A DNA stretch of 64,000 nucleotides from an uncultured Chloroflexia bacterium (GTDB lineage: Bacteria; Chloroflexota; Anaerolineae; CG2-30-64-16): the NCBI GenBank assembly GCA_963810095.1, contig CAWEMM010000009.1:32001-96000 (forward strand), read 5' to 3'. Every line of letters starts with the position of its first letter. Position 1 is the stretch's first letter. Of this stretch, positions 26,149-44,025 are shown in pieces. Below the pieces are notes generated by a model, which was not told the DNA's origin, made no database searches, and saw nothing but the letters and a program-made list of their open reading frames with translations. The position numbers and the translations under genes are program-made.

Positions 26149-26149
26149 C

Positions 26150-29100
26150 ATGAACAGCGAGCAATTTCGTGACCCCGCGCAGGAGTACCGGGAGATTCCC
26201 TTCTGGTCGTGGAATGACCGGCTTGATGCGGGCGAGCTTCGCCGGCAGGTCAGGCTGATCAAGGAGGGCGGTTGGGGAGGCTTCTTCATGCATTCGCGTG
26301 CGGGCCTGCTCACGCCGTACATGGGCCCTGAATGGCTGGCCAGCGTTCGCATCGCCGTCGAAGAAGCCCGCTCGTGCGGGCTGCAGGCTTGGCTCTACGA
26401 CGAAGACAAGTGGCCCAGCGGCTATGCGGGCGGCGCGGGCATCGCCAGCAACCCCGAGCATCGCGCCAGGCAGCTGGTGTGCAAAGTCGACGCCCGTCCA
26501 AATCTGCTTGCCGAGCGTATCGCCACCTTTCGCGCCCGCGAAGTCGGCGGAATTCTGGTAGATATCTGCCCTGACCCTGCACCGCAGCTGACCCGGCCAG
26601 AGGACAGGCTCATCCAATTCTATCCCACTGCCATGGCGCTGGGGAACCAGATCTTCAATGACTATACCTACGTCGACCTGCTCAACGCCGGTGCGGTCGC
26701 TACTTTTCTCGATTCGACGCATGCGGTCTACGAAGCTGCAATAGGCGACGAGTTCGGGGGCGTGGTTCCGGGCGTCTTCACCGACGAGCCCTGCTTCCAG
26801 TTCCACCACTATACCTACGGTGAGTTCGGCTACCAGGCAGATGACCTGACCGTGCCCTGGACAGGCGACCTTCTCGAGTTCTTTTGTGCCGCAAACGGAT
26901 ACGACCTGCTGCCCCATTTGCCGTCGCTGTTCTTCGACACGGGTGACACCCACAAGGTCCGCTACGATTTCTACCGCACCGTCACCCGCATGTTCGTCGA
27001 GCGGTTCACCAAGCAGGTATACCGGTGGTGCGAGGCCCACGGCTTGCAATTCGCGGGCCATTTTATGGGCGAGGACACCCTGCTCTGGCAGATCCCGTGG
27101 GTCGGGGCTGTCATGCCCCACCTTGCCTCAATGCACATCCCCGGCGTCGACAAGCTCGGCCGCAGCGTCAACGACTTCGACGCCGGCATGGTGCTGACTG
27201 TCAAGCAGGTGGACAGCGTTGCGTGCCAGACGGGGAAACCGCGCACCCTCTGCGAAAATTACGGCTGTTCCGGCCAGGACTTCAGTCACGCCGGCCGCAA
27301 GTGGATCGGCGACTGGGCCTACGTCCTGGGCGCTAACCTGAACAACCCGCACATGGCCCTCTACAGCATGGCCGGCGAGCGTAAGCGGGATTGCCCGCCC
27401 AACCTCTTCTTTCAGCAACCCTGGTGGCCGGAAAACCGGTTGATTTCGGACTACTTCAGCCGGCTGAGCTACGCGCTCACTCAGGGCCAGCGCCAGGTCG
27501 ACATCCTGGTGATCCACCCCGTTGCAAGCGCGTGGGCCGTCTTCCGCCCCGGCGCTTCGGGCGAAGTGGTCCGGCTGGACCTCGGTCTGAACGACCTGCT
27601 GCTGTGCCTGATGCGATCCCAACGCGACTTCCACCTTGGAGACGAGATGCTGATGGAGCCCGGCGAGCCATGCGAAGCCCGAGTCCTGCTGGGCGCAGAG
27701 GGACCGCGACTTATGGTGGGCCAGGCTTCCTACCCGGTTGTGATCGTGCCTCCGGCGATCACCTTGTCCCGCAACACCGTGACATTGCTTCACGAGTTCG
27801 CGGCTGCCGGAGGCAGCGTGCTTGCCATCCAGCCCCTCCCGACTCGTATCGACGGCGAAGATTCCGGCCCGGTGCTGCCCGCCGGAACGCGCATCGTCTC
27901 CTGCGCGGCTGTGCCGGCTGCTCTGGACGATTGCCTCCCCTTCGACGTCAGAGTGGAGGGCCGTCCAACGATTTGGGCACATCACCGGAAATCAGGCAAA
28001 GCCGACGTCTATTTCCTCGCCAACATCGACCCCGACCAGGGGTGCGATGCGGCTGTCCAGGTGCGATCGAACGGCCGAGTGGAACGTTGGGATCCGACGA
28101 CCGGCGCCGTGACTGCGATGCTTGCGGATACGAAAGACGGGATCATGACGGTCGATCTCGCATTCCCGCCAGCGGGCTCGCACCTGATCGTCGTCCACCC
28201 CGGCGAACTTCCGCTAACCGACCGCATCCCACGACAACTGGAGGGCCATGCCATCGCGCTCGACGATGACTGGGTCATTTCGTCCTGCAGTCAGAACGCG
28301 CTTCTTCTTGACACGGCGAGCATCGAGATGGAGGGCATGACTCCGTCCGCACCGCTACCGGTGCTCGATGCGCACGGTGTGGCCTGCCGCGCGGGTCCGG
28401 GCGCCCATTTCCGCCTTCGGTTCCGGTTCAAAGTCGGCGAGCCGGTGCGAACGCCGCTTACGCTCGTCATGGAGCACCCCGAGCAATTCAGGACTTGGCT
28501 CAACGGGCGCGAAATCGAGTGGCCAACGGACGCATGCTGGTGGATCGACCCTGCGTTCCGGCAGACAGATATCACGGGGGCAGTGGTGACGGGCGCCAAC
28601 GAAGTCCTCGTCAGTGGCGTGATGACCCGTGCGACTGAGCTGGAGGCCATCTACATCACAGGGGCTTTCGGCGTCACGTCGCAGTGGATCTGCCGTGAAG
28701 ACGAGCTCGCGGGCCAGGCGTTCGACCGCTATGCCCCTGACTTCCGGCTTTGCACCTTACCGGCGACCGCCGGCCGCAGCGGGCCGTTCCACCCCCTGCG
28801 CTACGATCTGACGGCGGCCGGCTTTCCTTTCTTTGCCGGCCGTATCAAGCTGACGCGCCAGGTGGACCTTGCGATTGTTCCGCCTGGCCTGACCCTGGAG
28901 ATTCGTGGGCTACGGGCTGCGCTGGCAAACGTCAGCGTGAACGGCAAACTCGCCGGCACGTCGGCCTGGCCGCCGCATCGCGTCCCGATTGCGGCACTGG
29001 CACGGCCCGGGCGGAACGAGATCGAGCTCGAGCTCGTGGGGACGCTCCGGAACCTGCTCGGGCCGCACCATCTTGCCGGCGGGGATCCGAACCGGACGAA

Positions 29101-29188
29101 TCCCGAGCAGTTCCGGGACAAGACCCATTGGACGGCTGACTACCTGCTGACCCCCTTTGGGTTCGAGCAGGTCCGGCTGTGCTGGTAG
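26150..29188 (+). CDS. GH106-like glycoside hydrolase
   Basis: PFWSWN, GGFFMHSRAGL, AWLYDEDKWPSG, GVFTDEP, HIPGVD, GERKRDCPP. Confidence 0.85.
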   Translation: MNSEQFRDPAQEYREIPFWSWNDRLDAGELRRQVRLIKEGGWGGFFMHSRAGLLTPYMGPEWLASVRIAVEEARSCGLQAWLYDEDKWPSGYAGGAGIASNPEHRARQLVCKVDARPNLLAERIATFRAREVGGILVDICPDPAPQLTRPEDRLIQFYPTAMALGNQIFNDYTYVDLLNAGAVATFLDSTHAVYEAAIGDEFGGVVPGVFTDEPCFQFHHYTYGEFGYQADDLTVPWTGDLLEFFCAANGYDLLPHLPSLFFDTGDTHKVRYDFYRTVTRMFVERFTKQVYRWCEAHGLQFAGHFMGEDTLLWQIPWVGAVMPHLASMHIPGVDKLGRSVNDFDAGMVLTVKQVDSVACQTGKPRTLCENYGCSGQDFSHAGRKWIGDWAYVLGANLNNPHMALYSMAGERKRDCPPNLFFQQPWWPENRLISDYFSRLSYALTQGQRQVDILVIHPVASAWAVFRPGASGEVVRLDLGLNDLLLCLMRSQRDFHLGDEMLMEPGEPCEARVLLGAEGPRLMVGQASYPVVIVPPAITLSRNTVTLLHEFAAAGGSVLAIQPLPTRIDGEDSGPVLPAGTRIVSCAAVPAALDDCLPFDVRVEGRPTIWAHHRKSGKADVYFLANIDPDQGCDAAVQVRSNGRVERWDPTTGAVTAMLADTKDGIMTVDLAFPPAGSHLIVVHPGELPLTDRIPRQLEGHAIALDDDWVISSCSQNALLLDTASIEMEGMTPSAPLPVLDAHGVACRAGPGAHFRLRFRFKVGEPVRTPLTLVMEHPEQFRTWLNGREIEWPTDACWWIDPAFRQTDITGAVVTGANEVLVSGVMTRATELEAIYITGAFGVTSQWICREDELAGQAFDRYAPDFRLCTLPATAGRSGPFHPLRYDLTAAGFPFFAGRIKLTRQVDLAIVPPGLTLEIRGLRAALANVSVNGKLAGTSAWPPHRVPIAALARPGRNEIELELVGTLRNLLGPHHLAGGDPNRTNPEQFRDKTHWTADYLLTPFGFEQVRLCW

Positions 29189-29200
29189 CCGGAGGCGGCG

Positions 29201-31523
29201 ATGCGCTCACAGCTCGACAGCTACAACGTCACATGGGCGATCCCGGCGGAGACCGACCGTGGTTCGATGCCCCTCGGCAACGGCGAGGTCGGCATCAACC
29301 TGTGGGTGCTCGCTGGTGGAGCGATCGAATTCTACCTCGCGCGCACCGACGCACGAACCGAGCTAGACCGGAGCGTCAAGCTGGGCAAGGTACGCGTCAG
29401 CTTCGCCCCCGACGCCCGGCTCACTGGTTCCGCCTTTCGGCAGACCTTGATCCTGGCTGAAGGCTGCATTGAGATCCGGTATGGCGACGAGAGCGGAAGC
29501 ACAGGCGTCGTCCACGTCTTCGTGGATGCTGAACTCCCGACCGTCTACCTGGCCGGCCGCTTTACGCATCCGCTCACCGTGATGGCGGAGTACGAGAACT
29601 GGCGAACCGGGCCGCGGCTCCACCCGGCTTCTGGCGCCTGTGAGACTGCTGATACAGTAGAACGGCTGGAAGGAGCGATCCTTTTCTACCACCGCAACGG
29701 TCCCACCATCATCCCCTTTCTGACCAAGTTGGAAGCCGTGGAGTCCGTCGCGTCCGCTATTCCCGACTGCCTGTCGGACCGCGTCTTTGGCGGACTCGTG
29801 CAGCTGGAGGGCAGCAAGCTGAGCCCTGAGGGCGGGCTGGTCACGACGGCGCCCGTTCAAGCGTTCAACCTCCAGGTCACGACACATAGCGAACAGGTCC
29901 CCGAGCTTCAAGTTTGGAAAGCCCGCGTTTCAAAACTCGCGGCCGAGGCTGCACCGCCCCCTGAAGCAAAGGAACGTACCGCGCGCTGGTGGAACGCGTA
30001 CTGGGACCAAAGCTGGATTTTCGTCGAGGGCGACCGCCCTGCCCCGCCTGAGATTGAGGACGCCCTGTTTCAACTGCGCCTCGAACCAGAGGGCGAGCGG
30101 TACGCGCCGGCCCCACCCTCAGCCGTAACTCGCGCTTACGTCCTGACACGCTTCATGTTCGCCTGCATGAGCCGTGGCGCATTCCCTATCCTGTACAGCG
30201 GCGGGTTGTTCAACGCAATGCCCGGTGGCTCGGATCAGCTCGAAGTACTGACGTTCAGCCGGCCGTTCACCGCACAGCCAGATAGCCAGCCGAACCTGGT
30301 GTGCAATCCGGACGAGCGCGGGTGGGGTCACTTCTATCTCTGGCAGAACACCCGCTTGCCCTATCACTCAATGCTGGCGCGCGGAGAAGCGAGTTGGCTG
30401 CACCGGCTCTTCGCGTTCTATCGCCGCTTCTGGGACCTGGACCGCGGCCGGGCCGCGCTCTACTATGGGGCCGAGGGCCAGTACAATACGGAGATCGTGC
30501 ACTCGTTCGGGCTGCAGCCGGATTGGGTCTACGGCCTCGAGCGCCAGGGCAAACCGGACGGCTACTCGGAAAACCGGTGGGGTGGCGCAGTGGACATTTC
30601 ACCCGGCCTGGAACTGCTCCACCTGATGCTCGACTTCTATGATTACGAGCAGGATGACGGGTTCCTGTGCGACGAGTTGATCCCTTTTGCCCGAGACCTG
30701 TTGCATTTCATCGAGACCCGGTTCACCGAGCGTAAGGCTGGCAAGCTGATGCTTCACCCCATCCAGTCCGTGGAAACGTACTGGGACACGACCGACGCGC
30801 TTCCGGTACTGGCAGGCATGACGGCGGTCGTGCGCCGAATTCTCGCATTGGCAGGCGAAAAGCTGGTCGACCGCGAGTTCTACTGCCGGATAGCGGAGAT
30901 GATCCCGGACCTACCGGTTGGGGATGCGGGCGGCGTCGACGTCCTGGCGCCCGCTCATGTATACGATTCGCAGCGTAAGAACTGCGAGGCGCCCGAGTTC
31001 TACGCCATTTTCCCTTTCCGACTCTTCGGTCCGGGCATGACGCTCGCCATCGACACCTATCGCCACGCGGCCACGATCGCGGGTAGCTTCAGGCCCTTCA
31101 CCCTCGGCCGCAGCCCTGAATACCCTAGCTATTCCGGCTGGCAGCAGCACGGGATGGTAGCCGCGCTGCTTGGACTTACCGATGACGTGCGCATCATCCT
31201 GGAGAACAACTGCGCGCTCGAGGAACCCGGGCTACCGTTTCCCAGCCATGTGGGGCCCCATCTACGACGCCGTCCCCGACATCGACCACGGGGCAAACGT
31301 CCTGACAACCTTGCAGCTAATGGCCTTTCAGGTGAATGGGGACGAGATTCGCATGCTGCCCGCCTGGCCGAAGGACTGGGACGTCTCCTTTAAGCTGCAC
31401 GCGCCCCGCGACACGACGGTCGAGTGCGTGTACCGGCGTGGCAAGATTGAGAAGCTGGCGGTAACGCCGGCGAGCCGGCGAAGTGACGTGCGCTGCCCGG
31501 CCTGGTGCCAGGTGGCAGAATAG
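29201..31523 (+). CDS. DUF5703 / GH95-like glycoside hydrolase (1-base frameshift near 31220)
   Basis: SMPLGNGEVGINLW, WQNTRLPY, QSVETYW, NCEAPEFYAIFPF; continues in the shifted frame as RFPAMWGP...PDIDHG...LPAWPKDWDVSFKLHAP. Confidence 0.85.
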
Positions 31524-31535
31524 GCGAGCAGGACT

Positions 31536-32672
31536 ATGAGCAGCGAGAGTATGACGCCGAGAGAGCGCTGGCTGGCCGTGTTGGCGCGGCAGAAGCCCGA
31601 CCGCGTGCCGATGGACTACTGGGCGACGCCGGAATTCAGCGCGAAGTTGATCCGTCATCTTGGTTTCAGCCGGCGGGGAGAGCAGGCGTTGATCGGGATG
31701 CTGAGCCGCGGCGAACGGATGGCGGGCCGCCTGAACGAGGGCCGGCTCGCCCTTCGGCGGGCCCTGCAATGCCTGAAAGTGGACTTCGTCGTGCAAGCCG
31801 CGCCGCGCTACGTTGGCCCAAGGCTGCCCGCCGATACGGACGTCTTCGGGTGCACGTACCGTGAAGTCGAGTATGGCACGGGAACGTATTCTGAAGTAGT
31901 CGCGCATCCGCTTGCACCGTACGGCTCGGTGGAGCAGATTGCCGCGAACTACCGCTGGCCCTCGCCAGATTGGTATGACTACCGAGGAATTCGGAACCAG
32001 ATCGCGGGCTGGGAGGACTACCCGGTTCAGGGCGGCGGCTCGGAACCGTTCCTGATTTATAAGGACCTGCGTGGGCAGGAGCAAGCGATGATCGACCTGG
32101 TAGAACACCCCGAGATCGTCCATTACTGCCTGGACAAGCTGTTCGACCTGGCCTATGTGAACACCGAACGGATCCTGGAGACGATACCGGGTAAAGTAAC
32201 GTATTGCTACGTGGCAGAAGACATGGGCGGGCAAAGCAACTTGATGTTTTCAAAGAAGCACATCCGCACGTTCCTCCTCCCGCGCATGAAGCGCATGATC
32301 GACCTCGCACACGACGGCGGCGCTTACGTCTTCCACCACAACGACGGCAACTGCCGGGCGATCCTCCCCGATCTGGTCGATGCCGGGATAGACGTTCTGA
32401 ACCCGATACAATGGCGATGCCAGGGGATGGACCGCGCGACACTAAAGGCTGATTTCGGCTCCAAGCTCGTCTTTCACGGTGCAGTGGACAATCAGCAGAC
32501 CCTGCCGTTTGGCACAGCGGAACAGGTGCGCCAGGAAGTGGCGGACAATTTGCGGGTCCTGGGCAGTGGCGGCGGCTATATTCTCGCGCCGTGTCACAAC
32601 ATCCAGCCGGTGACCCCGCCCGAGAATGTTGTCGCGATGTACGAAGCGGGGTACGAGCTTGGCTGGATGTGA
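31536..32672 (+). CDS. Uroporphyrinogen decarboxylase-like (URO-D/CIMS, MtaA/CmuA-like) protein
   Basis: MTPRERWLA..PDRVP, EDMGGQ, HHNDG, LNPIQ, GAVDNQ, ILAPCHNIQ. Confidence 0.9.
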   Translation: MSSESMTPRERWLAVLARQKPDRVPMDYWATPEFSAKLIRHLGFSRRGEQALIGMLSRGERMAGRLNEGRLALRRALQCLKVDFVVQAAPRYVGPRLPADTDVFGCTYREVEYGTGTYSEVVAHPLAPYGSVEQIAANYRWPSPDWYDYRGIRNQIAGWEDYPVQGGGSEPFLIYKDLRGQEQAMIDLVEHPEIVHYCLDKLFDLAYVNTERILETIPGKVTYCYVAEDMGGQSNLMFSKKHIRTFLLPRMKRMIDLAHDGGAYVFHHNDGNCRAILPDLVDAGIDVLNPIQWRCQGMDRATLKADFGSKLVFHGAVDNQQTLPFGTAEQVRQEVADNLRVLGSGGGYILAPCHNIQPVTPPENVVAMYEAGYELGWM

Positions 32673-32683
32673 GAAGGATAGAG

Positions 32684-34921
32684 ATGCACGACTACAACCT
32701 GAGATGGCATGAGCAGAGCCGCCATTCCGGCGAGTCCATGCCGTTGGGCGGTCATAGCATCGGCTGTAACGTGTGGGCCGAGAACAGCGAGCTCTTGCTG
32801 TACTTCCAGCAATCCGGCTGCTTTGACGAGAACGGTTCCATGCTCAAGGGCGGCCGGCTCCGCATTGCGTTCGACTCCAACCCTTTTGCCGGCGGCTTCC
32901 TGCAGGAGCTCATTCTCCAGGACGGTCACATCCGCATCGAGGGTCGAAGCGACCGGGGAAACATTAGCATCGTACTCTGGGTTGACGTGCGGTTGCCCGT
33001 GGTCCATATCGACCTGTCTGCCGAGTACGCTCTATCCATGCGGGTGCAGTATGAGACTTGGCGTGACGAGGACCGGCGTGTCGACAATCACTCCTACGAG
33101 CTGTTCCAGTGCAAAGAGGTCTGGGGCGATCCGGACAAGCCGGTGATCTTCCACAGGGACCAGATCGAGGTGATCGGACCGGGCGAGCTCCTCTTTTATC
33201 ACCGGAACCTGGATGACGACCTGTCGTTCGACCGGGAGATGGACACCCAGGGTCTCGGAGAACATAAGGCAAGCCTGTACAATCCGCAACGGGGCTTGAC
33301 CACAGGTGGCTTGCTGAAGGCGCCCGAAATGTACTTCGCAGGCATGGTGCGGGGCACATCCGTCGATACGCGTTATCTTGCGTATGCCTTCGAATCGGTC
33401 TCGCCGTCAGCCGAGCAGAGCATCGCGATCTATCTGCTCGCCGAGCAGGCCAGCACGCTCGAGGAATGGCGTGAGCACCTGAACTCGATTGTGGCAAGCA
33501 GTGACGCGACGAGCCAGACGGCTTTCGAGGACTCGCGCGCCTGGTGGCGGGAGTATTGGGAGCGCAGCTTCATCCGCATCAGGCCTGACGAGGCGCAAGC
33601 AGACGACCGGCTCTGGCAAATTGGCCGAAACTACCAGCTGTTTCGCTACCTGATGGGCTGCAACGACGCTGCCATCTGGCCGACCAAGTTCAATGGCGGC
33701 TTGTTCACGTTTGATCCCATCCTCGCGGGTAAGAGCCCGTGGTCGGACATCGAGCTACACTACACCCCGGACTACCGCCTCTGGGGCGGTGGCTCACACA
33801 CGGCCCAGAACCAGCGTCTGCTCTACTGGCCGATGCTCAAGAGCGGGGATTTTGCCCCCATGCGCCAGCTTTTCGACTTCTACAATCGGACGCTCAAGAC
33901 TGCGCAAACGCGCGCCAGGGTATTCTTCGGGGTGGACGGCGCGATCTATCCCGAACAGATCGGCATCTACGGCCTATGTCCGACCTGCGACCACGGCTGG
34001 GGCAACGAAACCGGCCTGCCCGTCGCGCAGATCCGCTATCACTTCTCGACCGCGCTCGAAATCAGCCTGATGATCCTGGACTACGCCGACTACACGGGAG
34101 AGGACGTTGCGGAGTACGTGGAATTCATGGACAGCGTCGTGAAGTTCTACGATGGGTTCTACCCTCGTGACGACGATCGGGGCCAGATGGTGATCGAGCC
34201 GGGCAACGCACTCGAAACGTACCATCCCGTCCGGAATCCCGTCGACGCCGTGGCCGGCCTCGAGTGCGTACTGCGCCGCCTGCTCCTGCTGTCCTCAGAG
34301 GCTATCTCGCCAGAGCGGAGGCAGAACTGGCAGCGTATAATGCGACGCGTTCCGACCCTCTCGTTCCGTGAGAAAGACGGGCGCAAGATCATCGCGTATG
34401 CCGAAACCTCGTCACCGCTGCACAACTGCGAGGTCCCCGAGTTGTACACGGTCTTTCCATTCGGCCAGTTCGGGCTCGGGAAGCCTGACCTACAGGTAGC
34501 CAGGGACACAGCGCGCTTTGCACCGGAGACGGGCGAGCAGCTCACCCATATCAGTTGGCACCAGCAAGGCATCCAATACGCCCGCCTCGGGATGCTTCCC
34601 GAGGCCATGGAGTTCCTATTCCGCAAGCTCGGCGACGCCGAGCAGCGGACTCCCGCGTTCTGGGGGCCGGGCCATGACTGGACGCCGGATCACAACTGGG
34701 GCGGCTCGGGCATGATCCAGCTTCAGGACATGCTGCTGCAGGCCGAGGGGGACAAGATCTATTTGTTCCCATGTTGGGATAAGAGGATCGACGTGTGGTT
34801 CCGGCTCCGGGCCCCAGGGAATACCATCGTCGAGTGCCGGCTGAAGGGAGGCGCCGTCGCGCAGTTGACGGTGACGCCTCGGGAACGACTGTCGGATGTG
34901 GATATCCTGCCGGAGCAATAG
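32684..34921 (+). CDS. DUF5703 / GH95-like glycoside hydrolase
   Basis: SMPLGGHSIGCNVW, PTKFNGGLFT, PDYRLWGGG, QNQRLLYWP, FWGPGHDWTPDHNWGG. Confidence 0.88.
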   Translation: MHDYNLRWHEQSRHSGESMPLGGHSIGCNVWAENSELLLYFQQSGCFDENGSMLKGGRLRIAFDSNPFAGGFLQELILQDGHIRIEGRSDRGNISIVLWVDVRLPVVHIDLSAEYALSMRVQYETWRDEDRRVDNHSYELFQCKEVWGDPDKPVIFHRDQIEVIGPGELLFYHRNLDDDLSFDREMDTQGLGEHKASLYNPQRGLTTGGLLKAPEMYFAGMVRGTSVDTRYLAYAFESVSPSAEQSIAIYLLAEQASTLEEWREHLNSIVASSDATSQTAFEDSRAWWREYWERSFIRIRPDEAQADDRLWQIGRNYQLFRYLMGCNDAAIWPTKFNGGLFTFDPILAGKSPWSDIELHYTPDYRLWGGGSHTAQNQRLLYWPMLKSGDFAPMRQLFDFYNRTLKTAQTRARVFFGVDGAIYPEQIGIYGLCPTCDHGWGNETGLPVAQIRYHFSTALEISLMILDYADYTGEDVAEYVEFMDSVVKFYDGFYPRDDDRGQMVIEPGNALETYHPVRNPVDAVAGLECVLRRLLLLSSEAISPERRQNWQRIMRRVPTLSFREKDGRKIIAYAETSSPLHNCEVPELYTVFPFGQFGLGKPDLQVARDTARFAPETGEQLTHISWHQQGIQYARLGMLPEAMEFLFRKLGDAEQRTPAFWGPGHDWTPDHNWGGSGMIQLQDMLLQAEGDKIYLFPCWDKRIDVWFRLRAPGNTIVECRLKGGAVAQLTVTPRERLSDVDILPEQ

Positions 34922-35047
34922 TGATGCGTGCCCCTTATACTCTCACAGGCTTAGGAATCAGGGGATTGACAGCGGGGATACGCCGTGCAACTTGTTCAAC
35001 TTTGTTATACGGCGCGGCACCCATGCCAACTCTCGCGAGGCTCGACG

Positions 35048-35180
35048 GTGCACTACAAGGCGGATTGGCAGCAGACCAAAGAACGCTTGCTCGTTTTCGG
35101 AACCGCGACGCACTCGACCGCCGTGGTCGTCCACGCGCCGCGTAAGGCATCCAAGCTGCCGCCTTTCCCCCAGTTGCCGT
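35048..35180 (+). pseudogene. Degraded N-terminal remnant of a URO-D/corrinoid methyltransferase-like gene
   Basis: GTG-HYKADWQQTKERLL, then with frameshifts NRDALDR and VVVHAPRKASKLPPFP; resembles YKxDWxxxKERxxAFW starts of this family; no continuation. Confidence 0.45.
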
Positions 35181-35390
35181 CGATCTCCTCCACCTGCTCG
35201 CTCCGCTGTCCGTCCGTCGCAAGGTCAGTTAGTGCGGTGATTACGTGTCCGCTATAATAGCGGAACAATCCCCCTGGAAATCCGTCCGGGTCCCGCGCTT
35301 GTCCACGGGTGCATCCGCTGCAACGGCAACGATGGTGCGCGTATGGCGGCGTCTGGAAAAGGTTCGACCGCTGTGCAAGGAGGTGGGCGA

Positions 35391-36065
35391 ATGGAGCCAT
35401 TGAAACCAGCTTCCTGGGAAGAGTTTCTGCGCAAGACCACCGTCGTGATTGGGCGACTGGGCTTGGCTTTGCTTTTCCTCTCGTCGTTATCCTGGAAGAT
35501 GCCTCCGCGCTACGGCTGCGGGCCCGGCCCGGGGTTCGCGTTCACCACGGCTGCGGCGGATGGCACCCTGATCCGGACGAGTGGCTTGTGCGACTGGATC
35601 GGTATCGAATCTGTCTACGCACAGCGCCCCCGCAAGTTCACTGCATCCTCTGATCAAGGCGGCGACGGCCTCCTCGCTGCGCCGGTTGGCCTGCTCCTCA
35701 GGCTGAACGGGGCGTTCGTGGACGGCATCGTCAAGCCCAACTTCAGTTGGTTCGGCTCGGTGATCTTCCTGGCCGAAGCTTGGATCGCCCTGAGCCTGGG
35801 CTTGGGCTTGTTCACGCGGCTGGGCGCGTTGGTGGCGCTCGGCATGTCCGCCCAACTGGCCCTGGGGATCGGCGGCGTCTCAGATCCGGCCACTCAACTT
35901 CAAGAATGGGTTTGGAGTTATCTCCTGATGGCGCTGCTGGCGCTTGTGCTCCTGGGCGCAGCGCCGGGCCGCGCGCTGGGGGTCGATGCCTGGCTGCGCC
36001 CCAGGCTCGCGGCAGCCCAGGAACGCGGGAGCCGGTTGGCCAGGGTACTGCTGGCACTCACATGA
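35391..36065 (+). CDS. DoxD/TQO small subunit-like (DoxX superfamily) membrane protein
   Basis: AGGAGG RBS; TATAAT at 35253; RLGLALLF..WKMPP, AEAWIALSLGLGLFTRLGA, EWVWSY, GRALGVDAWL; two Cys in the extracytoplasmic loop. Confidence 0.8.
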   Translation: MEPLKPASWEEFLRKTTVVIGRLGLALLFLSSLSWKMPPRYGCGPGPGFAFTTAAADGTLIRTSGLCDWIGIESVYAQRPRKFTASSDQGGDGLLAAPVGLLLRLNGAFVDGIVKPNFSWFGSVIFLAEAWIALSLGLGLFTRLGALVALGMSAQLALGIGGVSDPATQLQEWVWSYLLMALLALVLLGAAPGRALGVDAWLRPRLAAAQERGSRLARVLLALT

Positions 36066-36150
36066 CGGACCCCCGGATGTGCTGGGTACTACTGGCGCTG
36101 CGTCTTGCGAAACTCAGTAGTCTTCACGGGTGACTGAACGGAGAGAATGC

Positions 36151-36986
36151 ATGGGGTTGCCAGATGTCGGAGGGGCGCCGAACGACCAGAGCAGCAGTGC
36201 CGCGGCCTTTCCCTGGAAGCTGTGGCTCTACACGAACTACGACTGTAACCTGAGCTGCAGCTATTGTCTCTCCGAGTCGAGCCCGCGTGCCGCTCGCCGC
36301 GGGCTGGATCTGGCGACGGTGCGGCAGGCCATGGACGAGGCCGTCGCGCTGGGGTTCGAACACGTCTTCCTGACGGGCGGCGAGCCGTTTCTTCTGGACG
36401 ACGTCTATGCGATGTTGGCCTATGCGTCGGCCCACTTGCCGACAACCGTCCTGACCAACGGCTGCTCTCTTGCGGGGCAGGCGGCTGGCGCGGCTCTGCG
36501 CGATTGCCAATCCCAACCTGACGATCCAGGTGAGCCTGGACGGCGCGCGACCCGAACACCACGACCCCTATGCGCGGGCCGGGAGCTTGGGCCGCAGCGG
36601 TTGAGGGCATCCAACTGCTTCGTGAGCACGGCTTTCACGTCCGCATCGGTACCACGGAGACGCCCGTCAACGCCGCGCACCTCGACGAGCTGGCAGCGTT
36701 CCTCTCCTCCCTCGGCATCGCCGAAGAAGATCATATCAGCCGGCCGGTGGCACGTCGCGGCTTCGCCGCGTCAGGGCTGGAAGTCGGCATCGATACCCTG
36801 ACACCCGAGCTAACCCTGACCGCGGTGGGGGTTTTCTGGCATCCCCTGGCTTCGCCCTCCAGTGCGGACATGCTGATCTGCCCGCAGATCTTTCCCCTCG
36901 CAAGGGCGGTCGCACGCGTCCGGCAGGAACTCCTGACACTGGCTCAAGCTGGCAAGGATCAGCTGAAGACCGTCACCTGAGGCTAA
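36151..36986 (+). CDS. Radical SAM protein (Rv1681/MoeX-like), probable penultimate selenocysteine; two 1-base frameshifts (~36465, ~36570)
   Basis: LWLYTNYDCNLSCSYC (CxxxCxxC), FLTGGEPFL, VLTNG; across the shifts IQVSLDG..PEHHD..RGPGAW, PELTLTAVGVFWHP; ends KTVT-TGA-GGC-TAA. Confidence 0.85.
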
Positions 36987-36991
36987 CGCAC

Positions 36992-37008
36992 GGCTTCCGG
37001 TGGAAGCC
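36992..37008 (+). promoter_or_regulatory. Candidate bacterial SECIS hairpin
   Basis: GGCTTCC-GGT-GGAAGCC perfect 7-bp stem beginning 11 nt after TGA 36978-36980; GU in the loop; no U-tract. Confidence 0.6.
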
Positions 37009-37103
37009 AGGGTGAGCAGCGGGAGCAACGGGCCGTGGGACGCACGATCCTGCTTGGGTTTCCGGTGGGCGTAGCGTCGTGTGGAAGCGGGTGCTGTGCA
37101 AAC

Positions 37104-37778
37104 ATGAGTGGCGCGCTCCTGGTGATGGCCAAGCGGCCGGCGGCCGGTACGACGAAGACGCGGCTGACCCCCGCGCTCTCGGCAGAACAGGCCGCGGCGC
37201 TTTACGAGTGCTTTCTGCGGGATGTTCTCGACATTGCACGTGCCGTACCCGCCGTGACGCGTACCATCGCCTATCCGCCTGCCGACGGGCAGCACTACTT
37301 CCGGCAACTGGCCGCTGATTTCGAGCTGGCGCCGCAGGTCGGCGCAACGTTAGGGCAGCGCCTGGCTCATGTCCTGGGCGAGAGCCTCGGCCGCGGCCGG
37401 ACGCCGGCCGTCGCGCTGAGCAGCGATAGCCCGACCCTGCCGGTCGAACACGTGCGACGGGCCTTCACCTGGCTGGCCGAGGGCGATGTAGACGTGGTGC
37501 TCGGCCCGTGCGCAGACGGTGGGTACTATCTGATTGGCGTGACCGTCCCCCGACCGCACCTGCTGCTCGCCGTGGAGATGTCAACCCCGCGAGTCCTGGC
37601 CGACACACTGGCCCTGGCTGCCGAGGGTGGGCTGAAAGTGGGGTTGTTGCCGGCCTGGTACGATGTGGATACGGTTGCAGACCTCGCATGCCTGCGAGCG
37701 GACCTGGCCGCGCTGCCCCCTGCCGTCGCCCGGCACACCCGCAGTCTGCTGGCAGCCGACCCGACGCTTCCCCGGTGA
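37104..37778 (+). CDS. TIGR04282/DUF2064-type transferase (rSAM/selenodomain-associated)
   Basis: LLVMAKRPAAGTTKTRL, QVGATLGQRL, SDSPTLP, VVLGPCADGGYYLIG, WYDVDTVADL. Confidence 0.9.
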   Translation: MSGALLVMAKRPAAGTTKTRLTPALSAEQAAALYECFLRDVLDIARAVPAVTRTIAYPPADGQHYFRQLAADFELAPQVGATLGQRLAHVLGESLGRGRTPAVALSSDSPTLPVEHVRRAFTWLAEGDVDVVLGPCADGGYYLIGVTVPRPHLLLAVEMSTPRVLADTLALAAEGGLKVGLLPAWYDVDTVADLACLRADLAALPPAVARHTRSLLAADPTLPR

Positions 37779-37782
37779 TGAG

Positions 37783-38466
37783 ATGCAAATTGCCGTGATT
37801 ATCCCCGCCCTGAACGAAGCCGGCAACATCGCTGACCTGGTGCGGGAGACTCTCGCTCAGGGGGTGGTTGACGTAATCGTCGCCGACAATGGTTCGACGG
37901 ATGGCACTGCCCCGGCCGCGCAGAAGGCGGGCGCGCGGGTGGTCACCGAGCCCCGTCGCGGCTACGGGTATGCCTGTGCCGCTGGAGCCGCCGCAACGAC
38001 TGCCGACGTGTTGGTCTTTCTCGACGGCGACTACAGCTCCCTGCCGGCTGAACTAGACCGGCTGTTAGCGCCCCTGCGCGACGGTGAGGCGGACCTGGTG
38101 TTGGGCTCCCGAACCTTGGGCCAAATCGCGCCTGGCGCCATGCCGTCGCACCAACGCTTCGGCAACTGGCTGATGGCGCGCGCCATGCGCTGGCTTTATG
38201 GCGTGCCCGTGACCGATCTGGGACCTTATCGGGCCATTACGTGGGCGCTGCTGACCGGATTGGACATGCGTGAAATGACTTTCGGTTGGCCGGTCGAGAT
38301 GATGGTCAAGGCGGCTCGCCACCATGCGCGGATCGTCGAGGTGCCGGTCAGCCACGCGCCGCGGCGTTCCGGCCGGTCCAAGGTCGGTGGCAGCGTGCGC
38401 GGCTCCGTTCTTGCCGCCTACTACATTGTGACAGTCATCCTGCGTTACGCGTTTACCCGCCCCTGA
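37783..38466 (+). CDS. Glycosyltransferase family 2 (DPM-synthase-like)
   Basis: VIIPALNE, DNGSTDGT, RGYGYAC, FLDGDYS, TDLGPYRAI, GWPVEM, SKVGGS. Confidence 0.92.
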   Translation: MQIAVIIPALNEAGNIADLVRETLAQGVVDVIVADNGSTDGTAPAAQKAGARVVTEPRRGYGYACAAGAAATTADVLVFLDGDYSSLPAELDRLLAPLRDGEADLVLGSRTLGQIAPGAMPSHQRFGNWLMARAMRWLYGVPVTDLGPYRAITWALLTGLDMREMTFGWPVEMMVKAARHHARIVEVPVSHAPRRSGRSKVGGSVRGSVLAAYYIVTVILRYAFTRP

Positions 38467-38683
38467 GCCGTCATCACCCCAGCAGGTCAAGCCGTTCCAG
38501 CCACGCCAGCGCATCGAGCAGTAACACCACCCAGAAGTAAGTATCTATCCGAGAATTAGCTGGGGCCGGTCTCTGACCGTGCCCCGTCTGGCAGGGCGAC
38601 GGCAGGGTCGCAATGATCAGGAAGCGCAATCGTCATTCCGGCATGTCGGCGGATATCGTCTTATCATGACCGTGTGAGGTGGT

Positions 38684-39784
38684 ATGGAAGCGATTGCAGT
38701 TGTGCCTGGTACGAAAGACGTGCGGCTGGTCGACCGCCCCGAGCCGTCTGTTCGGGCGGATGACGAAATCAAGGTGCAGATCTGCCGGGTGGGCATCTGC
38801 GGGACGGACCGGGAGGAGGCCGCCGGCGGTCGCTCCAAGGCGCCCCCCGGCCAGAAGGACCTGGTGATCGGGCACGAGAACTTCGGGCGGGTGGTGGAGA
38901 CCGGGAAGGCGGTCACACGCGTCAGGCCCGGCGACTATGCCGTGTTCACCGTCCGCCGCAGTTGCGGCAAGTGCCTGCCGTGTCGCATGGGTCGCTCGGA
39001 CATGTGCCTGACGGGCGACTATACGGAGCGCGGCATTTGGGGGGCGGACGGCTACCAGGCGCAGTTCGTGGTTGACAAAGAGGAGTACGTCGTCTGCGTC
39101 CCCGCAGAGCTGGAGCCGGTCGGCGTACTGACCGAGCCGCTCAGCATTGGCGAAAAGGCCATTCAGGAGGCGGTGCGGGTGCAGATGGCCCGCCGCCCCG
39201 ACTCGCTCGCCACGCCCGAATGGCTCTTCGGACGGCGTTGCCTGGTCGCGGGGCTCGGCCCCGTTGGCTTGCTTGCGGCGCTCGCGTTGCGCTTGCGGGG
39301 CGCCGAGGTTTGGGGGCTCGATATCGTGGACGAGAGTTCGGCGCGGCCCCAGTGGCTAAAGGCCATCGGCGGTCAGTACGTGGACGGTCGCCAGGTCAAG
39401 GCGGACCAGGTGGACGACAAGCTCGGCCCGATGGAGTTCATCTTCGAAGCAACCGGCATCGCCTCCCTGGAGTTCGACTTGCTCGATGCGCTCGGCGAGG
39501 GCGGCGCGTATGTCCTCACCGGTATCCCCGGCGGCGATCGCCCGTCGCAGGTTCAGGCGGCCAGCCTGATGCGGGAGTTCGTCCTGGCGAACAAGCTCAT
39601 GCTCGGCAGCGTGAATGCGGCGGCGGGTCACTTCCAGATGGCGGTGGACGACCTGGCGCAGGCCCGGCTCAAGTGGGGCGACCACGTCGCCACGCTGATT
39701 ACCGATCGTGTGCCGCACGCTAAGTTCCAGGAAGCGTTGGACAGGCACAATCAGGATGAGATCAAGGTGGTGGTGGAGTGGTGA
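38684..39784 (+). CDS. Zn-dependent glucose 1-dehydrogenase (MDR family)
   Basis: GICGTD, GHE, VRRSCGKCLPC..C, ERGI, LTEPLS, GLGPVG, GSVNA. Confidence 0.9.
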   Translation: MEAIAVVPGTKDVRLVDRPEPSVRADDEIKVQICRVGICGTDREEAAGGRSKAPPGQKDLVIGHENFGRVVETGKAVTRVRPGDYAVFTVRRSCGKCLPCRMGRSDMCLTGDYTERGIWGADGYQAQFVVDKEEYVVCVPAELEPVGVLTEPLSIGEKAIQEAVRVQMARRPDSLATPEWLFGRRCLVAGLGPVGLLAALALRLRGAEVWGLDIVDESSARPQWLKAIGGQYVDGRQVKADQVDDKLGPMEFIFEATGIASLEFDLLDALGEGGAYVLTGIPGGDRPSQVQAASLMREFVLANKLMLGSVNAAAGHFQMAVDDLAQARLKWGDHVATLITDRVPHAKFQEALDRHNQDEIKVVVEW

Positions 39785-39792
39785 GGTGATTC

Positions 39793-42283
39793 ATGTCTGA
39801 CAACCAGCCAACCCAGGCCCCCGGCCACCCCGGCATCGAGGCCCGCTGGACCTCCAGTGCCAAGACGGGCGTTGGCACCGCGCTGGGCAACGCATCTCGC
39901 ATCTGGTTCACGCTCGGCCACGGCATCATCGACGAGGTCTATTACAGCCGCATCGACTGGGCCTGCACGCGCGACATGGGGCTGCTCGTTTCGGACGGCC
40001 AAGGCTGGGTGTCCGAAGAGAAGCGGCACGCGAAGCACGAGGTCGCGTACCCCTACGCCGGCATCCCCTATTACCGGCTCACCAATACCGACCAGGGTGG
40101 CCGCTACCGGATCGAGAAGGAGATCCTGGCCGATCCGCAGCGCGACGTGATCCTGCAGCGCACGCGCTTCGTGCCGCTGCAGGGCAAGCTCGAGGACTAC
40201 CACCTGTACTTGATCCTTGCCCCGCACCTGGGCAACCAGGGCGCCGGCAACACGGCCTGGACTGGCGACACGAAGGGCGAGCAAATGCTGTTTGCAGAGC
40301 GTGACGGCACCTCGCTTGCGCTCGCCTCCTCCGCCCCCTGGCTGAGGCGCTCGGCCGGTTTCGTCGGCACGTCGGACGGATGGCAGGACATCACACAGCA
40401 CGGCGAGATGAAGTGGGAGTACGCCCGGGCCGACGACGGCAACGTTGCACTCACCGGCGAAATCGACCTCGGGGCCTGCGCCCTGGCCGGCAGCGGGGAG
40501 ACGGGTGGAGGGGTGGAGTTCACCCTTGCGCTCGGCCTGAGCCGCACCGCGCTTGAGGCCGGTCACCACGCGCGCACCGCGCTCTTCGACGGCTTTGACC
40601 GCGCTCGCGATGTCTATGTCGGGCAGTGGCAGCGCTGGCAGGACGGCCTGCTTGCGCTGGAGGACGAGGAAGTCAGAGACGCTACCTCGGGACACGCGCA
40701 GCCCGAGCTTCCTCCAATCGACGAGTTCCGCACCAGCGCGATGGTGCTGCGCGTGCACGAGGACAAGGTCTTTGCGGGCGGCATGATCGCCAGCCTTTCG
40801 ATCCCGTGGGGGTACGCGAAGGGCGACGACGACCTCGGCGGCTACCACCTGGTGTGGACGCGCGACCTGGTGGAGAGCGTCGGCGGGTTGATTGCCGCGG
40901 GCGCGCATGGCGATGCCGCACGTGTGCTGCGCTACCTGCAGGCCACGCAGGAGGCGGACGGCCACTGGCCGCAGAACATGTGGCTCGACGGCACACCCTA
41001 CTGGCATGGCATCCAGATGGACGAGACCGCGTTCCCCATCCTGCTGACGGAGACTGCCTACCGCCTGGGCGTGCTGGACGAGGCGCTGCTCGACAGCTTC
41101 TGGCCGATGGTGCACACGGCCGCGGCGTACGTCGCAGCGAACGGGCCGGTCAGCAAGGAGGACCGCTGGGAGGAGAACGCCGGCTACTCGCCCTTCACGC
41201 TGGCCGTCGAGATCGCGGGCCTGTTGGCTGCCGCCTCACTGGCCGAGACGACCGGTAAGTCGACCGCCGCGCAGTACCTGCGGGAGACGGCGGACAACTG
41301 GAATGCCAACATCGAGCGCTGGACCTACGTGACGGGGACCGCACTGGCGGAGAAGCACGGGGTGGAGGGATATTACGTCCGCATCGCGCCGCCGGATGTG
41401 GGCGAAGGGGCGTCGCTGAAGGACGGTTACGTGCCGATCAAGAACCGGCCGCCGGGGGAGAGCAAGGTGCGGGCCGTGCAGATCGTTAGCCCCGACGCGC
41501 TTGCACTCGTGCGCTTCGGCCTGCGCCGCGCCCGACGACCCGCGCATTCTGAACACGGTCAAGTTGATCGACGCGACGCTCAAGACCGACACGCCGTTCG
41601 GGCCGGTATGGCACCGGTACACAGGCGATGGCTACGGCGACCACGGGGACGGCGGGCCGTTCGACGGCACGGGTGTGGGCCGAGGCTGGCCGCTGCTGGT
41701 GGGCGAGCGCGCGCACTATGAGCTGGCAGCCGGGCGCTTCGACGAGGCGGAGCGGCTGATGCGCGTGATGGAAGCGCTGGCGAACGAGGGCGGCATGATC
41801 CCCGAGCAGACCTGGGACGCGGCCGACATCCCCGAGGAAGAGCTGTTCTTCGGCAAGCCGGCGGGAAGCGCTATGCCGCTCGTGTGGGCGCACGCCGAGT
41901 ACCTCAAGCTGCGGCGTTCGCTCCGCGAGCGTCGAGTCATCGACATGCCGCCCCAGCCCGCCAACCGCTACCTCACCGGCGACGACCGGCATACGGGCAC
42001 GCCCTTCACCCTCTGGCGCTTCAACCATCGCTCGCGCGTCCTTCAGCAGGGCAACCTCCTGCGGGTCGAGACACGGTCGCCCGCGCTGGTTCACTGGAGC
42101 GTGGATGGCTGGCAGAACGTGCAGGAGTGCGCGACGACGGACACGCAAGTGGGGATGCACGTGGCGGACCTGCCGACGCAGGAGCTTGAAGAGGGGGCGC
42201 AGGTGACTTTTACCTTCCGCTGGCCGGCCGAAGGCGACCGGTGGGAGGGGACGAACTATGAGGTGCGGGTCGTTAAGGCCTGA
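39793..42283 (+). CDS. Glucan 1,4-alpha-glucosidase/glucoamylase (GH15) (1-base frameshift near 41527)
   Basis: WTSSAKTGVG, GGYHLVWTRD, QMDETAFP, DRWEENAGYS; after the shift RYTGDGYG, GRGWPLLVGER, MIPEQ, SAMPLVWAHAEY. Confidence 0.92.
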
Positions 42284-42356
42284 GTGATTCTACAAAGCCT
42301 GGCAGGTCTTGGCCGTGTCGAGCGCCGGAGGGGCAGCCACCCCGTGCAGGTAATGA

Positions 42357-44025
42357 TCATGCACGCGTGCCGAACCGGGTCGAGCCGGTGCCGGCGCTCA
42401 ACTCCCCCGCCGGCGCCGCCCGCTTCAGCCAATCCGCCGTCCGGGCAGCGATGGCCGAGATCGTCAGCGCCGGGTTCGCCGACCCCTGCGTGGGCAGCAC
42501 GCTACCGTCGCATACCAGCAGGTTCGGCACGTCCCACGAGCGGCACCACTGGTCCACGACTGAGTCCTGCGGCGTGAAGCCCATGCGGGCGGTCCCCACC
42601 AGGTGCGCGTAGCGCCGCACGTAGTGCGTCTCGGTCGCGCCCGCAGCCCTCAGCACGTTTTCCGCCGTCTTGATCCCCGCCCTCATCATGCGCTTGTCGT
42701 TCTCGAATAGATTGAAGTGGACATAAGGTGCGGGTAGCCCGTACTGGTCCTTGGCCGTCGGGTGTAGGGACACGAAATTCCGCTCGTCCGGCAGGATCTC
42801 GCCCAGCACGCCGATCGCCGCATAGTGGTTGTACTGCTGCATCGCCCCGACCAGCTCCGCGCCGAACCTTCCCGTCCTCGTCGGCCAGGAGGTGCGCCAT
42901 CGCGATCGGCAGGGGCGCGACCGTCTGCAGCGCATACCCGCGCACGAAGTCGTTGTGAGGATCAGTCTCGTAGAAGGCCTCGCTGCACGCGCAGGCCGGC
43001 GGCGCCTTGTACTGGCGGATCATGCCGGGGAAGTTGCCCCACACCACCGGTCCGGCCTGCGACATCAGGTTCTTGCCCACCAGCCCGCTCGAGTTCGCAA
43101 GGCCATCGGGGAAGAGGCTCGACTTCGAGTTGAGCAGCAGCCGCGGGGTCTCGATCGCGTAGCCTGCAACGATGACGGCTTGTGCGCGCTGGAACTCTGG
43201 GACAGGCTTGCCGTGCTCGTCGTTGCGGAAGTAGTGCACGCCCGTCGCGCGGCCCTGCTCGTCCACCGCCACCTCGTACGCCATGCAGCCCGTCCGGATC
43301 TCCGCGCCCGCTTCGACTGCAAACGGGATGTGACTCACGAGGATGCTGCTCTTCGCGCCCACCTTGCACCCCAGGAGGCAGAAGCCCCGCATGATGCAGT
43401 GCGGCCGTTTCCCCTCGCGGCCCGCCGGGATGCCCACCGGCCCGCCCGCGACCACCGGGATGCCCAGCTTCGTGCACCCCTCGACCAGCATCAGCCCGGC
43501 GGTACCCGCCTGCAGCGGTGCGTAGGGGTAGCCGTGCGGCTTGCCCCAGGGGTAGTGCCTGGGTCCCGACACCGGGTACTCGCGCTCCATCCGCTCGTAG
43601 TACGGCTCCAGATCCTCGTAGGAGATCGGCCAGTCCACCGCAACGCCGTCGTTCGTCCGCACACGGAAGTCGGACGGGTGAAAGCGCGGGCAGAATGCGG
43701 CGTAGTGGACGGTGCTCCCGCCCACCCCCCGGCCCGAGTTGTTCGCGCCCAGCTCCAGCGGCTCGGTCCCGCCCGTGATCCGCAGGTCGTTCCAGTACAG
43801 CCGGGACGACCCCGCCTCGTCCGACACCATGTCCTTCTCCGAGTCGTGCCAGTCGCCCGCCTCCAGTGCGACCACGGTGAAGCCGTACTTCGCCAGCCGC
43901 TGGGCCAGCACCCCGCCGCCGGCGCCTGTCCCCACGATGCAAAAATCCACCGTCTCGGACGGCTCGAACTCCCGCATATCCGTGTCAAGGACCCAGTTGG
44001 ACGAAAGATGCACGTGTAGCTTCAT
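42357..44025 (-). CDS. GMC family oxidoreductase flavoprotein (1-base frameshift near 42870)
   Basis: IVGTGAGGG, GVGGSTVHY, DWPISYEDLEPYY, CxxxGxCxxGC, ETPRLLLNS; after the shift AHLVGTARMG, SANPALTI. Confidence 0.92.

Follow-up and report, generated by a model that had tools for sequence, protein, structure and literature searches.

The window analysed here is a stretch of 64,000 nucleotides from an uncultured Chloroflexia bacterium (GenBank assembly GCA_963810095.1, contig CAWEMM010000009.1, positions 32,001 to 96,000). Between its positions 35391 and 38466, all on the + strand, lie genes for a DoxD-like membrane protein, an enzyme of the radical S-adenosylmethionine (SAM) type, a TIGR04282 transferase, and a family 2 glycosyltransferase (GT2), with a putative selenocysteine (Sec) codon and a hairpin resembling a selenocysteine insertion sequence (SECIS) at the end of the radical SAM gene (Table 1). 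An initial annotation, made from the letters of this stretch, had described four co-oriented genes with short gaps, and their coordinates bear this out: the gaps are 85, 117, and 4 nt long, and the four genes almost certainly constitute a single operon, called the cassette below.

Table 1. Features of the radical SAM cassette, in positions of the window.
Feature	Position	Strand	Basis
DoxD/DoxX-like membrane protein, 224 aa	35391-36065	+	Pfam DoxD, four hydrophobic helices
Rv1681-type radical SAM enzyme	36151-36986 (ATG behind GGAGAG; alternative GTG 36130)	+	NF049973, CNLSCSYC motif
UGA very probably read as Sec, penultimate residue	36978-36980	+	aligned to invariant Cys
SECIS-like hairpin GGCUUCC-GGU-GGAAGCC, 3' untranslated	36992-37008	+	covariation
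TIGR04282/DUF2064 transferase, 224 aa, CofC/MobA-like fold class	37104-37778	+	TIGR04282, Pfam DUF2064
GT2, polyprenyl-phosphate-sugar synthase type, 227 aa, hydrophobic C-terminal stretch	37783-38466	+	Pfam Glycos_transf_2

The best family for the radical SAM enzyme is NF049973, the Rv1681 family, which its three pieces match in order (positions 69-154, 156-188, and 191-325, with 113.7, 26.8, and 122.8 bits; 191-314 for the last piece as assembled), the next family reaching only 97 bits. These pieces do not attain the curated NF049973 cut-off of 380 bits; intact Chloroflexota relatives score 285-299 bits, two actinobacterial proteins 533 (L081) and 483 bits (L104), and an archaeal one (L096) 409 bits. 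Positions 1-68 of the profile, a TusA-like domain, are absent from the window protein, whose match starts at position 69. Because it lies below the curated cut-off and has no such N-terminal domain, we class the predicted enzyme as a Sec-bearing, domain-split sister group of the Rv1681 family. The initial annotation had named an ordinary ArsS or MoaA score as an outcome that would speak against its proposal, and neither profile passes: ArsS (TIGR04167) gives 24.3 bits against a cut-off of 300, within the radical SAM core only, and MoaA (TIGR02666) gives 40.1 bits against 284 on the N-terminal piece. Judged by these profiles, the enzyme is neither ArsS nor MoaA and belongs, as had been proposed, to a different, shorter type devoid of an ArsS-like Cys-rich tail. 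The next-best families are the mycofactocin radical SAM enzyme MftC (97.3 bits), the heme b synthase AhbD (92.1 bits), and StsB (90.9 bits). Among solved structures, a profile search puts SkfB (78.6 bits) and BlsE (72.4 bits) nearest, with matches confined to core positions 25-185 and nothing found for the C-terminal domain. In a 33-sequence alignment (A4), the protein shows no extra cysteine beyond the cluster motif CxxxCxxC apart from the residue in the tail, and no SPASM or twitch cysteines.

As assembled, the gene spans three reading frames (frame 1 to ~36462, frame 2 to ~36571, then frame 0), which the initial annotation had not seen. Compared with four intact homologues of related genomes, it has one extra base at each junction as well as an in-frame insertion of 6 bases. 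We checked the frame against Logan contigs from four runs of one study over positions 35000-42500; these runs may include the source sample. At the first junction, one contig of run X1 (depth 2) has an additional A behind 36462 and is without 36465-36466; it is thus one base shorter overall and reads TNGMLLRG, the consensus motif of the family. At the second junction, a contig of run X1 drops 36572 (giving DPYRG) and one of run X2 drops 36570 (giving DPLRG), and the frame is regained in both. Since short-read contigs lack the extra bases, we read both frame breaks as assembly errors and, low as the depths are, find an intact gene by far the more plausible. The two frameshifts of the assembled gene could instead mark a true pseudogene of this strain in a decaying cassette, a reading that we hold to be most improbable: the extra bases are missing at the second site in contigs of two runs and at the first in one run's contig, the three pieces are collinear on the hidden Markov model (HMM) and contain no stop or other damage, and the same kind of break occurs in other genes of the assembly. 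We also considered whether the two breaks might be sites of programmed +1 frameshifting and dropped the idea, as they have no motif in common and the extra bases are missing from short reads. A Sec codon within the gene at the frame-2 TGA at 36603 was likewise dropped, being an artefact of the frame error. Elsewhere in the window, a GH15 glucoamylase/glucodextranase gene (39793-42283) is split in two frames near 41520; one base, at 41526, is missing from a contig of run X3, so that here too the assembly has an indel.

With its frame restored, the radical SAM gene ends in ...KTVT-UGA(Sec)-GGC(Gly)-TAA. A scan of one genome per species retrieved 80 further loci, which together with the window make 81: 38 of Sec type, 41 of Cys type, and two unclear, one because the gene is fused or shifted (L085) and one because a contig end cuts it (L095). 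In alignment A4, the column in question (profile position 325 of 326) is as invariant as the three cluster cysteines, with 20 U and 13 C among its 33 sequences. TGA-GG is common to all five aligned genes (the window and the four intact homologues), and in the 37 other Sec-type loci the codon behind TGA is GGG in 15, GGC in 8, GGA in 7, GGT in 4, and AGT in 3, followed directly by a second stop in 30. The Cys-type proteins end in F-x-C-A at 37 loci and in Q-C-A-V at 4. When TGA is read as Cys, the HMM match reaches position 325 of 326 in four of five sequences and gains 2-5 bits; the fifth, L022, is not extended. All of the closest 120 of 4127 database relatives end at the same F-[TRK] (TFT in 88, TFR in 20, and eight others), at the point where the Sec-type loci have the UGA, so that the annotation of these proteins probably ends one or two residues too early, a truncation that loses the sole residue invariant outside the iron-sulfur motif.

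Bacterial SECIS elements are stem-loops situated close to the UGA on its 3' side, with a loop in which G-U is conserved, and both features are present in the Sec-type hairpin. Its start lies 14 nt behind the U of the UGA in the window and, in a simple scan, 10-18 nt behind it in 34 of 37 loci. A 7-bp hairpin with loops such as C-GUG-N and GUN is kept in 38 of 38 aligned Sec-type sequences, where 88.1% of the cells of the alignment pair, against 36-60% in slid registers. All seven pairs have changed on both sides, in 51 cells compared with a shuffled mean of 14.7, and none of 500 shuffles reached 51. The Cys-type loci share no hairpin: 19 of 43 have none of at least 5 bp and the remainder have them at scattered offsets.

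The same UGA could be an ordinary stop and the hairpin a terminator or stability element. In favour of this, UGA is the usual stop of the Cys forms (34 of 41), read-through gains just one residue in most cases, and the hairpin has no Rfam match. Nevertheless, we consider an ordinary stop very unlikely, given that the UGA aligns to an invariant Cys, that Gly is kept behind it with synonymous codon changes and a second stop, that no T-run follows the hairpin, that the Cys forms lack it, and that the residues just before UGA are kept in all of the 120 closest proteins. The Sec machinery of the genome points the same way as the alignments: it comprises selA (365 bits, frame-split), selB (302.5 bits), selD (378.3 bits), and one tRNA-SeC, and SelB is over its cut-off in all five relatives that carry a Sec-form radical SAM enzyme. 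The UGA at 36978 is thus very probably decoded as Sec, as the initial annotation had supposed for this enzyme. A SECIS lying wholly behind the stop codon is unusual for bacteria, and the hairpin alignment supplies 38 examples that SECIS models can draw on. Two changes suffice for the Sec/Cys state on a tree of 78 sequences; Sec forms are limited to Chloroflexota and enclose a nested Cys clade of five Dehalococcoidia-type sequences. The notion of a "selenium-linked pathway" stands for the enzyme's own Sec and falls for the pathway, which does not need selenium because 41 of the 81 loci carry Cys at the Sec site. In the same genome, selD (G000:C6:1337268-1338194) has an in-frame TGA and its product, the selenophosphate synthetase SelD, is for that reason predicted to be a selenoprotein itself, and selA (G000:C2:182884-184214) consists of two overlapping frame pieces (365 and 185.6 bits), probably split by the same kind of assembly error as the radical SAM gene.

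The first gene of the cassette is preceded by a Shine-Dalgarno sequence (AAGGAGGTG at 35378-35386, 4 nt before the ATG), and its product passes Pfam DoxD (PF04173) with 26.3 bits for a gathering cut-off of 22.7, a marginal pass, and fails the thiosulfate:quinone oxidoreductase DoxD model NF041179 (21.3 bits, cut-off 300). The NF049986 (Rv1678) profile finds no match in the DoxD-like proteins of the window, L028, or L104, and gives 80 bits on a Streptomyces member (L102) of the same DoxD-like BLAST cluster. Residues R22, K36, E129, W213, W215, and Y217 and the motif GR..G.D are conserved in these proteins. Upstream of the start, a single contig of run X4 has one base fewer at 35341 and at 35353, differences that leave the gene as called from the ATG at 35391 unaffected.

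The initial annotation had suggested scoring against TIGR04282 and TIGR04283, among others, and for the last two proteins the outcome is divided. The transferase passes TIGR04282 over the whole profile (168.5 bits, cut-off 134, positions 1-189 of 189), also matches Pfam DUF2064 (92.5 bits) and CofC (40 bits), and is the sole TIGR04282 copy in its genome, where a search for ArsS found none (best score 29.8 bits). The GT2 matches Glycos_transf_2 with 85.6 bits and fails TIGR04283 (58.7 bits, cut-off 182, over the first 95 profile positions only). Its best NCBIfam match is AglJ (140.7 bits, under the cut-off of 325), followed by DPhHxTase (63.5 bits), PpgS (51 bits), and MftF (36.8 bits).

Six of 40 related genomes contain the radical SAM gene at E <= 1e-40. 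To describe its surroundings we searched within 6 kb of the radical SAM gene at each locus, many loci being cut by contig ends. The four families occur together in 18 of the 80 other loci, namely 14 Sec-type loci of Chloroflexota, one Cys-type locus of Dehalococcoidia, and three of Actinomycetota (14 Sec-type and four Cys-type in all); their co-occurrence elsewhere, which the initial annotation had made a point of its proposal, is therefore real. A DoxD-like protein is near the radical SAM gene in 60 of the 81 loci (27 Sec-type, 32 Cys-type) and the TIGR04282/GT2 cluster in 32 (23 Sec-type, 8 Cys-type). Other neighbours are a second radical SAM protein, of SPASM type (21 loci, 20 Sec-type and one Cys-type; identity to the L024 query 35% or more), DsrE (57.7 bits; 12 loci, 11 Sec-type and one Cys-type), and, always at Sec-type loci, a small TusA (Pfam, 37.9 bits; 11 loci), a NUDIX hydrolase (11 loci), and a GT87-like membrane glycosyltransferase (10 loci). 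At seven loci, DoxD-like, TIGR04282, GT2, SPASM radical SAM, and DsrE genes all lie beside the radical SAM gene, and a common order in Chloroflexota (L032, L036) is radical SAM, TusA, DsrE, DoxD-like, TIGR04282, GT2, SPASM radical SAM, and GT87-like. The SPASM partner resembles metalloenzyme and tungsten-cofactor maturases (120.6 and 112.5 bits). A SPASM radical SAM gene in L115 (G000:C12:401000-404500, open reading frame from 1155) has an in-frame TGA after ...GIIRCP with a noise-like reading beyond it, and this TGA is probably a plain stop.

The actinobacterial loci of Cys type have other partners: an acyl-CoA dehydrogenase of Rv1679 type, present at 23 of the 41 Cys-type loci, and a binding-protein-like gene of Rv1680 type, present at 33. 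They pass their own NCBIfam models with 622 and 495 bits, respectively. The next-best matches of the former are 3-sulfinopropanoyl-CoA desulfinase, SfnB, and DszC, and those of the latter are sulfonate-, phosphonate-, and selenate-type, PhnD-like binding proteins. The small TusA, a separate gene that takes the place of the N-terminal domain at 11 Chloroflexota loci, matches NF049973 positions 5-53, and by alignment the actinobacterial radical SAM proteins carry this domain fused at the N-terminus. This fused domain has a Cys (D-C-G-S-G) in the Streptomyces-type L100 and L103, and the Cys is absent from most other actinobacterial ones (L104 and L081 were compared). A Metallophos_2 phosphoesterase is fused in front of the radical SAM enzyme, replacing the TusA-like domain, at five loci and in protein P0126; these are the Actinomycetospora-type L076, L085, L087, L090, L098, and P0126, which end in ...QCAV or ...RCAI. 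In the window's own genome, tblastn with GT87, Rv1679, and Rv1680 queries found no orthologue, and the best SPASM match (34% identity, on C12) was set aside as another enzyme.

This distribution raises the question of whether the cassette is one system or two modules that are merely adjacent, a radical SAM enzyme with a DoxX-like protein of the Rv1678-Rv1681 type and an unrelated TIGR04282-GT2 glycosylation pair. The DoxD-like gene follows the radical SAM gene in 60 of 81 loci, compared with the TIGR04282/GT2 cluster's presence in just 8 of the 41 Cys-type loci, and at L029, L040, L042, and L053 the pair is on the other strand or 3-5 kb away. Set against this, the pair is kept in 23 of the 38 Sec-type loci, many of the others being cut by contig ends, all four families recur together in two phyla, and the genome's sole TIGR04282 gene sits in the cassette. 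We therefore regard mere adjacency of two modules as unlikely.

Several known systems share parts with the cassette. The closest is the Rv1678-Rv1681 set (NF049986, NF049984, NF049985, and NF049973), which has the same radical SAM core and C-terminal domain, the same invariant penultimate Cys/Sec, and a DoxX-like membrane protein close by. The window protein differs in lacking the fused TusA-like N-terminal domain, in having Sec instead of Cys, and in scoring below the cut-off; moreover, TIGR04282 and GT2 stand in place of the Rv1679 dehydrogenase and the Rv1680 binding-protein-like protein. The initial annotation was right to see an uncharacterised and conserved cassette behind its "undescribed variant pathway", but the radical SAM family already had an NCBIfam model. 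It had also drawn a parallel to the ArsS/TIGR04282/TIGR04283 set, and here the parts do agree, with a radical SAM selenoprotein, TIGR04282, a second GT2, and, in some versions, a phosphoesterase (the Metallophos_2 fusions); in contrast, the radical SAM enzymes are not orthologous (24 bits, no Cys-rich domain), the GT2 is not TIGR04283, and the neighbours of the family are sulfur-relay proteins and DoxX-like proteins rather than arsenic genes.

More distant comparisons concern the tail and the membrane protein. Thioredoxin reductase has a C-terminal Gly-Cys-Sec-Gly tail, with a SECIS necessarily located behind the coding region. The window protein has the same penultimate Sec followed by Gly, presumably also on a flexible C-terminal arm, whereas it has no adjacent Cys for a selenenylsulfide, is a radical SAM enzyme and not a flavoprotein, and would have its SECIS read by bacterial SelB. 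In Sulfolobales, the DoxDA thiosulfate:quinone oxidoreductase occurs with thiosulfate transfer by DsrE3A/TusA. DoxD-, DsrE-, and TusA-type proteins are also found together in the Chloroflexota versions of the cassette, although the window protein reaches just 21 bits of the 300 required by NF041179 and tblastn finds DsrE and TusA lacking in the window's genome. Finally, TrsS (NF045646) and the CUAEP-tail radical SAM protein (NF040546) are likewise radical SAM proteins with Sec near the C-terminus; TrsS gives only 25.8 bits on the window piece for a cut-off of 490, and the window motif is one Sec followed by Gly and stop, not CU.

What the cassette does can be approached through its tail. We infer that the Sec/Cys residue is the working residue, since no other Cys-type site beyond the cluster motif is invariant, the residue lies at the chain end, and it is exchanged for Sec. 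The best explanation overall, which we put forward tentatively and with a little less than even confidence, is a Sec-tailed radical SAM cassette whose tail carries sulfur. A sulfur-relay mechanism of the following kind is possible, with somewhat lower confidence. The flexible Sec/Cys tail would act as a swinging arm loaded with an activated chalcogen, in all likelihood persulfide sulfur, which TusA and DsrE would supply in relatives and another donor in the window's genome. The arm would bring the sulfur into the radical SAM active site, where the SAM-derived radical might form a carbon-sulfur bond or the tail might donate a hydrogen atom. The substrate or product could be a sugar- or nucleotide-type molecule activated by TIGR04282, which the GT2 would hand to a lipid carrier at the membrane, and the DoxX-like protein could anchor the radical SAM enzyme there or couple it to quinone. 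Three things make a persulfide-carrying arm our best guess: the TusA domain, which is either split off or fused, the presence of DsrE, and partners of sulfur type in actinobacteria. The recurrent TusA, DsrE, SfnB/DszC-like acyl-CoA dehydrogenase, and PhnD-like binding protein likewise point to a sulfur (possibly selenium) relay rather than to arsenic. Arsenic, one of the elements that the initial annotation had in view, finds nothing in its favour. A sugar or nucleotide derivative, finally lipid-linked at the membrane, is the kind of modified molecule suggested by TIGR04282 (CofC/MobA fold class), the polyprenyl-phosphate-type GT2, and the GT87-like transferase.

Several points weigh against a sulfur-carrying cassette. 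That the tail reaches the active site is an assumption, and a Sec tail also fits hydrogen-atom donation or metal binding; further tail roles compatible with the data are those of hydrogen-atom donor, metal or metalloid ligand, and methyl carrier. In the window's own genome, 88.5% complete, tblastn found no TusA, DsrE, or matching SPASM radical SAM protein. TIGR04282 and GT2 are missing from 33 of the 41 Cys-type loci and may be a separate module. The DoxD assignment is marginal, with 26.3 against 22.7 bits. The contigs that correct the radical SAM frame have a depth of just 2-3, with one contig per site and run. Finally, product, substrate, and activity are not reported for any family member in the literature searched.

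A related version would transfer arsenosugar logic to a chalcogen: activated S or Se held by the tail would be joined by the SAM-derived radical in a C-S or C-Se bond of a sugar or nucleoside, and TIGR04282 and GT2 would then convert the product to a thio- or seleno-glycoside that is lipid-linked and destined for the cell surface. We judge this unlikely; if true, the actinobacterial Rv1678-Rv1681 genes would be a new radical sulfur-insertion route fed by a TusA-type carrier. Slightly less likely still is a closer analogue of arsenosugar synthesis, along the lines of the initial annotation, in which the 5'-deoxyadenosyl group of SAM would be moved to a soft atom (As, Se, or persulfide S) on the Sec/Cys tail, and TIGR04282, GT2, and, in some lineages, a phosphoesterase would then give a glycoside. 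The parts match, for NCBIfam calls TIGR04282 and TIGR04283 arsenosugar-pathway transferases and ArsS a radical SAM (seleno)protein, Metallophos_2 is fused to the same radical SAM type in P0126 and at 5 of 81 loci, and the weaker matches include the adenosyl-transferring HpnH (51-65 bits) and ArsS (35-47 bits). The preprint 10.1101/2024.02.01.577332 describes the cleavage of the adenosyl C-S bond by ArsS as a radical reaction. However, ArsS gives just 24 bits on the window piece for a cut-off of 300, its Cys-rich domain is absent and the tail has a single Cys or Sec, there is no arsenic gene among the 40 most frequent neighbour clusters, and peptide- or cofactor-type radical SAM enzymes score higher (MftC 97, AhbD 92, and StsB 91 bits).

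Those higher scores could be taken at face value, making the enzyme a trimmed relative of MftC, AhbD, or sactisynthases involved in cofactor or peptide maturation, with TIGR04282 adding a nucleotide and an MftF-like GT2 adding sugars, as in F420 and mycofactocin. The next-best families and the nearest solved structures, SkfB and BlsE, agree with this, as do the CofC score of the TIGR04282 protein, the MftF score of the GT2, and the likeness of the SPASM partner to metalloenzyme and tungsten-cofactor maturases. Nonetheless, the radical SAM enzyme has no SPASM or twitch cysteines, no precursor-peptide gene stood out among the conserved neighbour clusters, for which no dedicated search was made, and the GT87-like protein of 10 loci and the polyprenyl-phosphate-type GT2 point to a surface glycoconjugate. 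We hold maturation to be unlikely, about as much so as the adjacency of two unrelated modules, and retain the sulfur-carrying tail as the preferred, if tentative, reading.

Judged by titles and abstracts from a full-text search, Rv1681 figures only as a tuberculosis biomarker or diagnostic antigen, and the abstracts found for Rv1678, Rv1679, Rv1680, moeX, and fadE16 contain nothing functional; the literature search for DUF2064 gave no paper. In the passages covered, the family table of a 2026 selenoproteome review (PMC13188914) has TIGR04167 and TrsS among the radical SAM selenoproteins and names neither NF049973 nor Rv1681. Likewise in the sections covered, the Haft and Gwadz preprint mentions the CUAEP-tail radical SAM protein, the main text and one supplement of BSepDB contain neither "radical SAM" nor "NF049973", and the main text of the deep-Sep paper does not contain "radical SAM". 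Within these texts, a Sec-type Rv1681-like family was not found among the listed selenoprotein families. The Rv1681 family is widespread in actinobacteria, and the Sec/Cys pair together with the split-or-fused TusA domain provides a first functional handle on it, pointing to a redox- or chalcogen-active tail that works with a sulfur carrier. In this way enzymes of an uncharacterised family, which takes its name from a tuberculosis gene, are tied to sulfur or selenium handling and to sugar-transfer enzymes. In addition, TIGR04282 occurs here with a radical SAM partner other than ArsS, which bears on the true role of the "arsenosugar" transferases.

The surroundings of the cassette in the window are glycoside hydrolases and sugar oxidoreductases, and three flank queries matched no radical SAM locus other than the window's own. 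Rfam (E up to 1) and ARAGORN found no match over 34800-39000, and a promoter/terminator scan gave nothing exceeding shuffles. Upstream, on the + strand, positions 23254-34921 hold a run of glycoside hydrolase genes (a GH78-type rhamnosidase, a GH106-like protein, and two DUF5703 proteins), with a URO-D-like gene set among them. Directly behind the GT2 stop lies an element of ~55 nt (38538-38592) with an internal GC-rich hairpin and no Rfam or tRNA match. In the genome, blastn-short finds 46 matches to it in either orientation, spread over 8 contigs, and at this element the short-read contigs from three runs pile up and break off. It looks like a dispersed repeat resembling repetitive extragenic palindromic (REP) sequences or miniature inverted-repeat transposable elements (MITEs).

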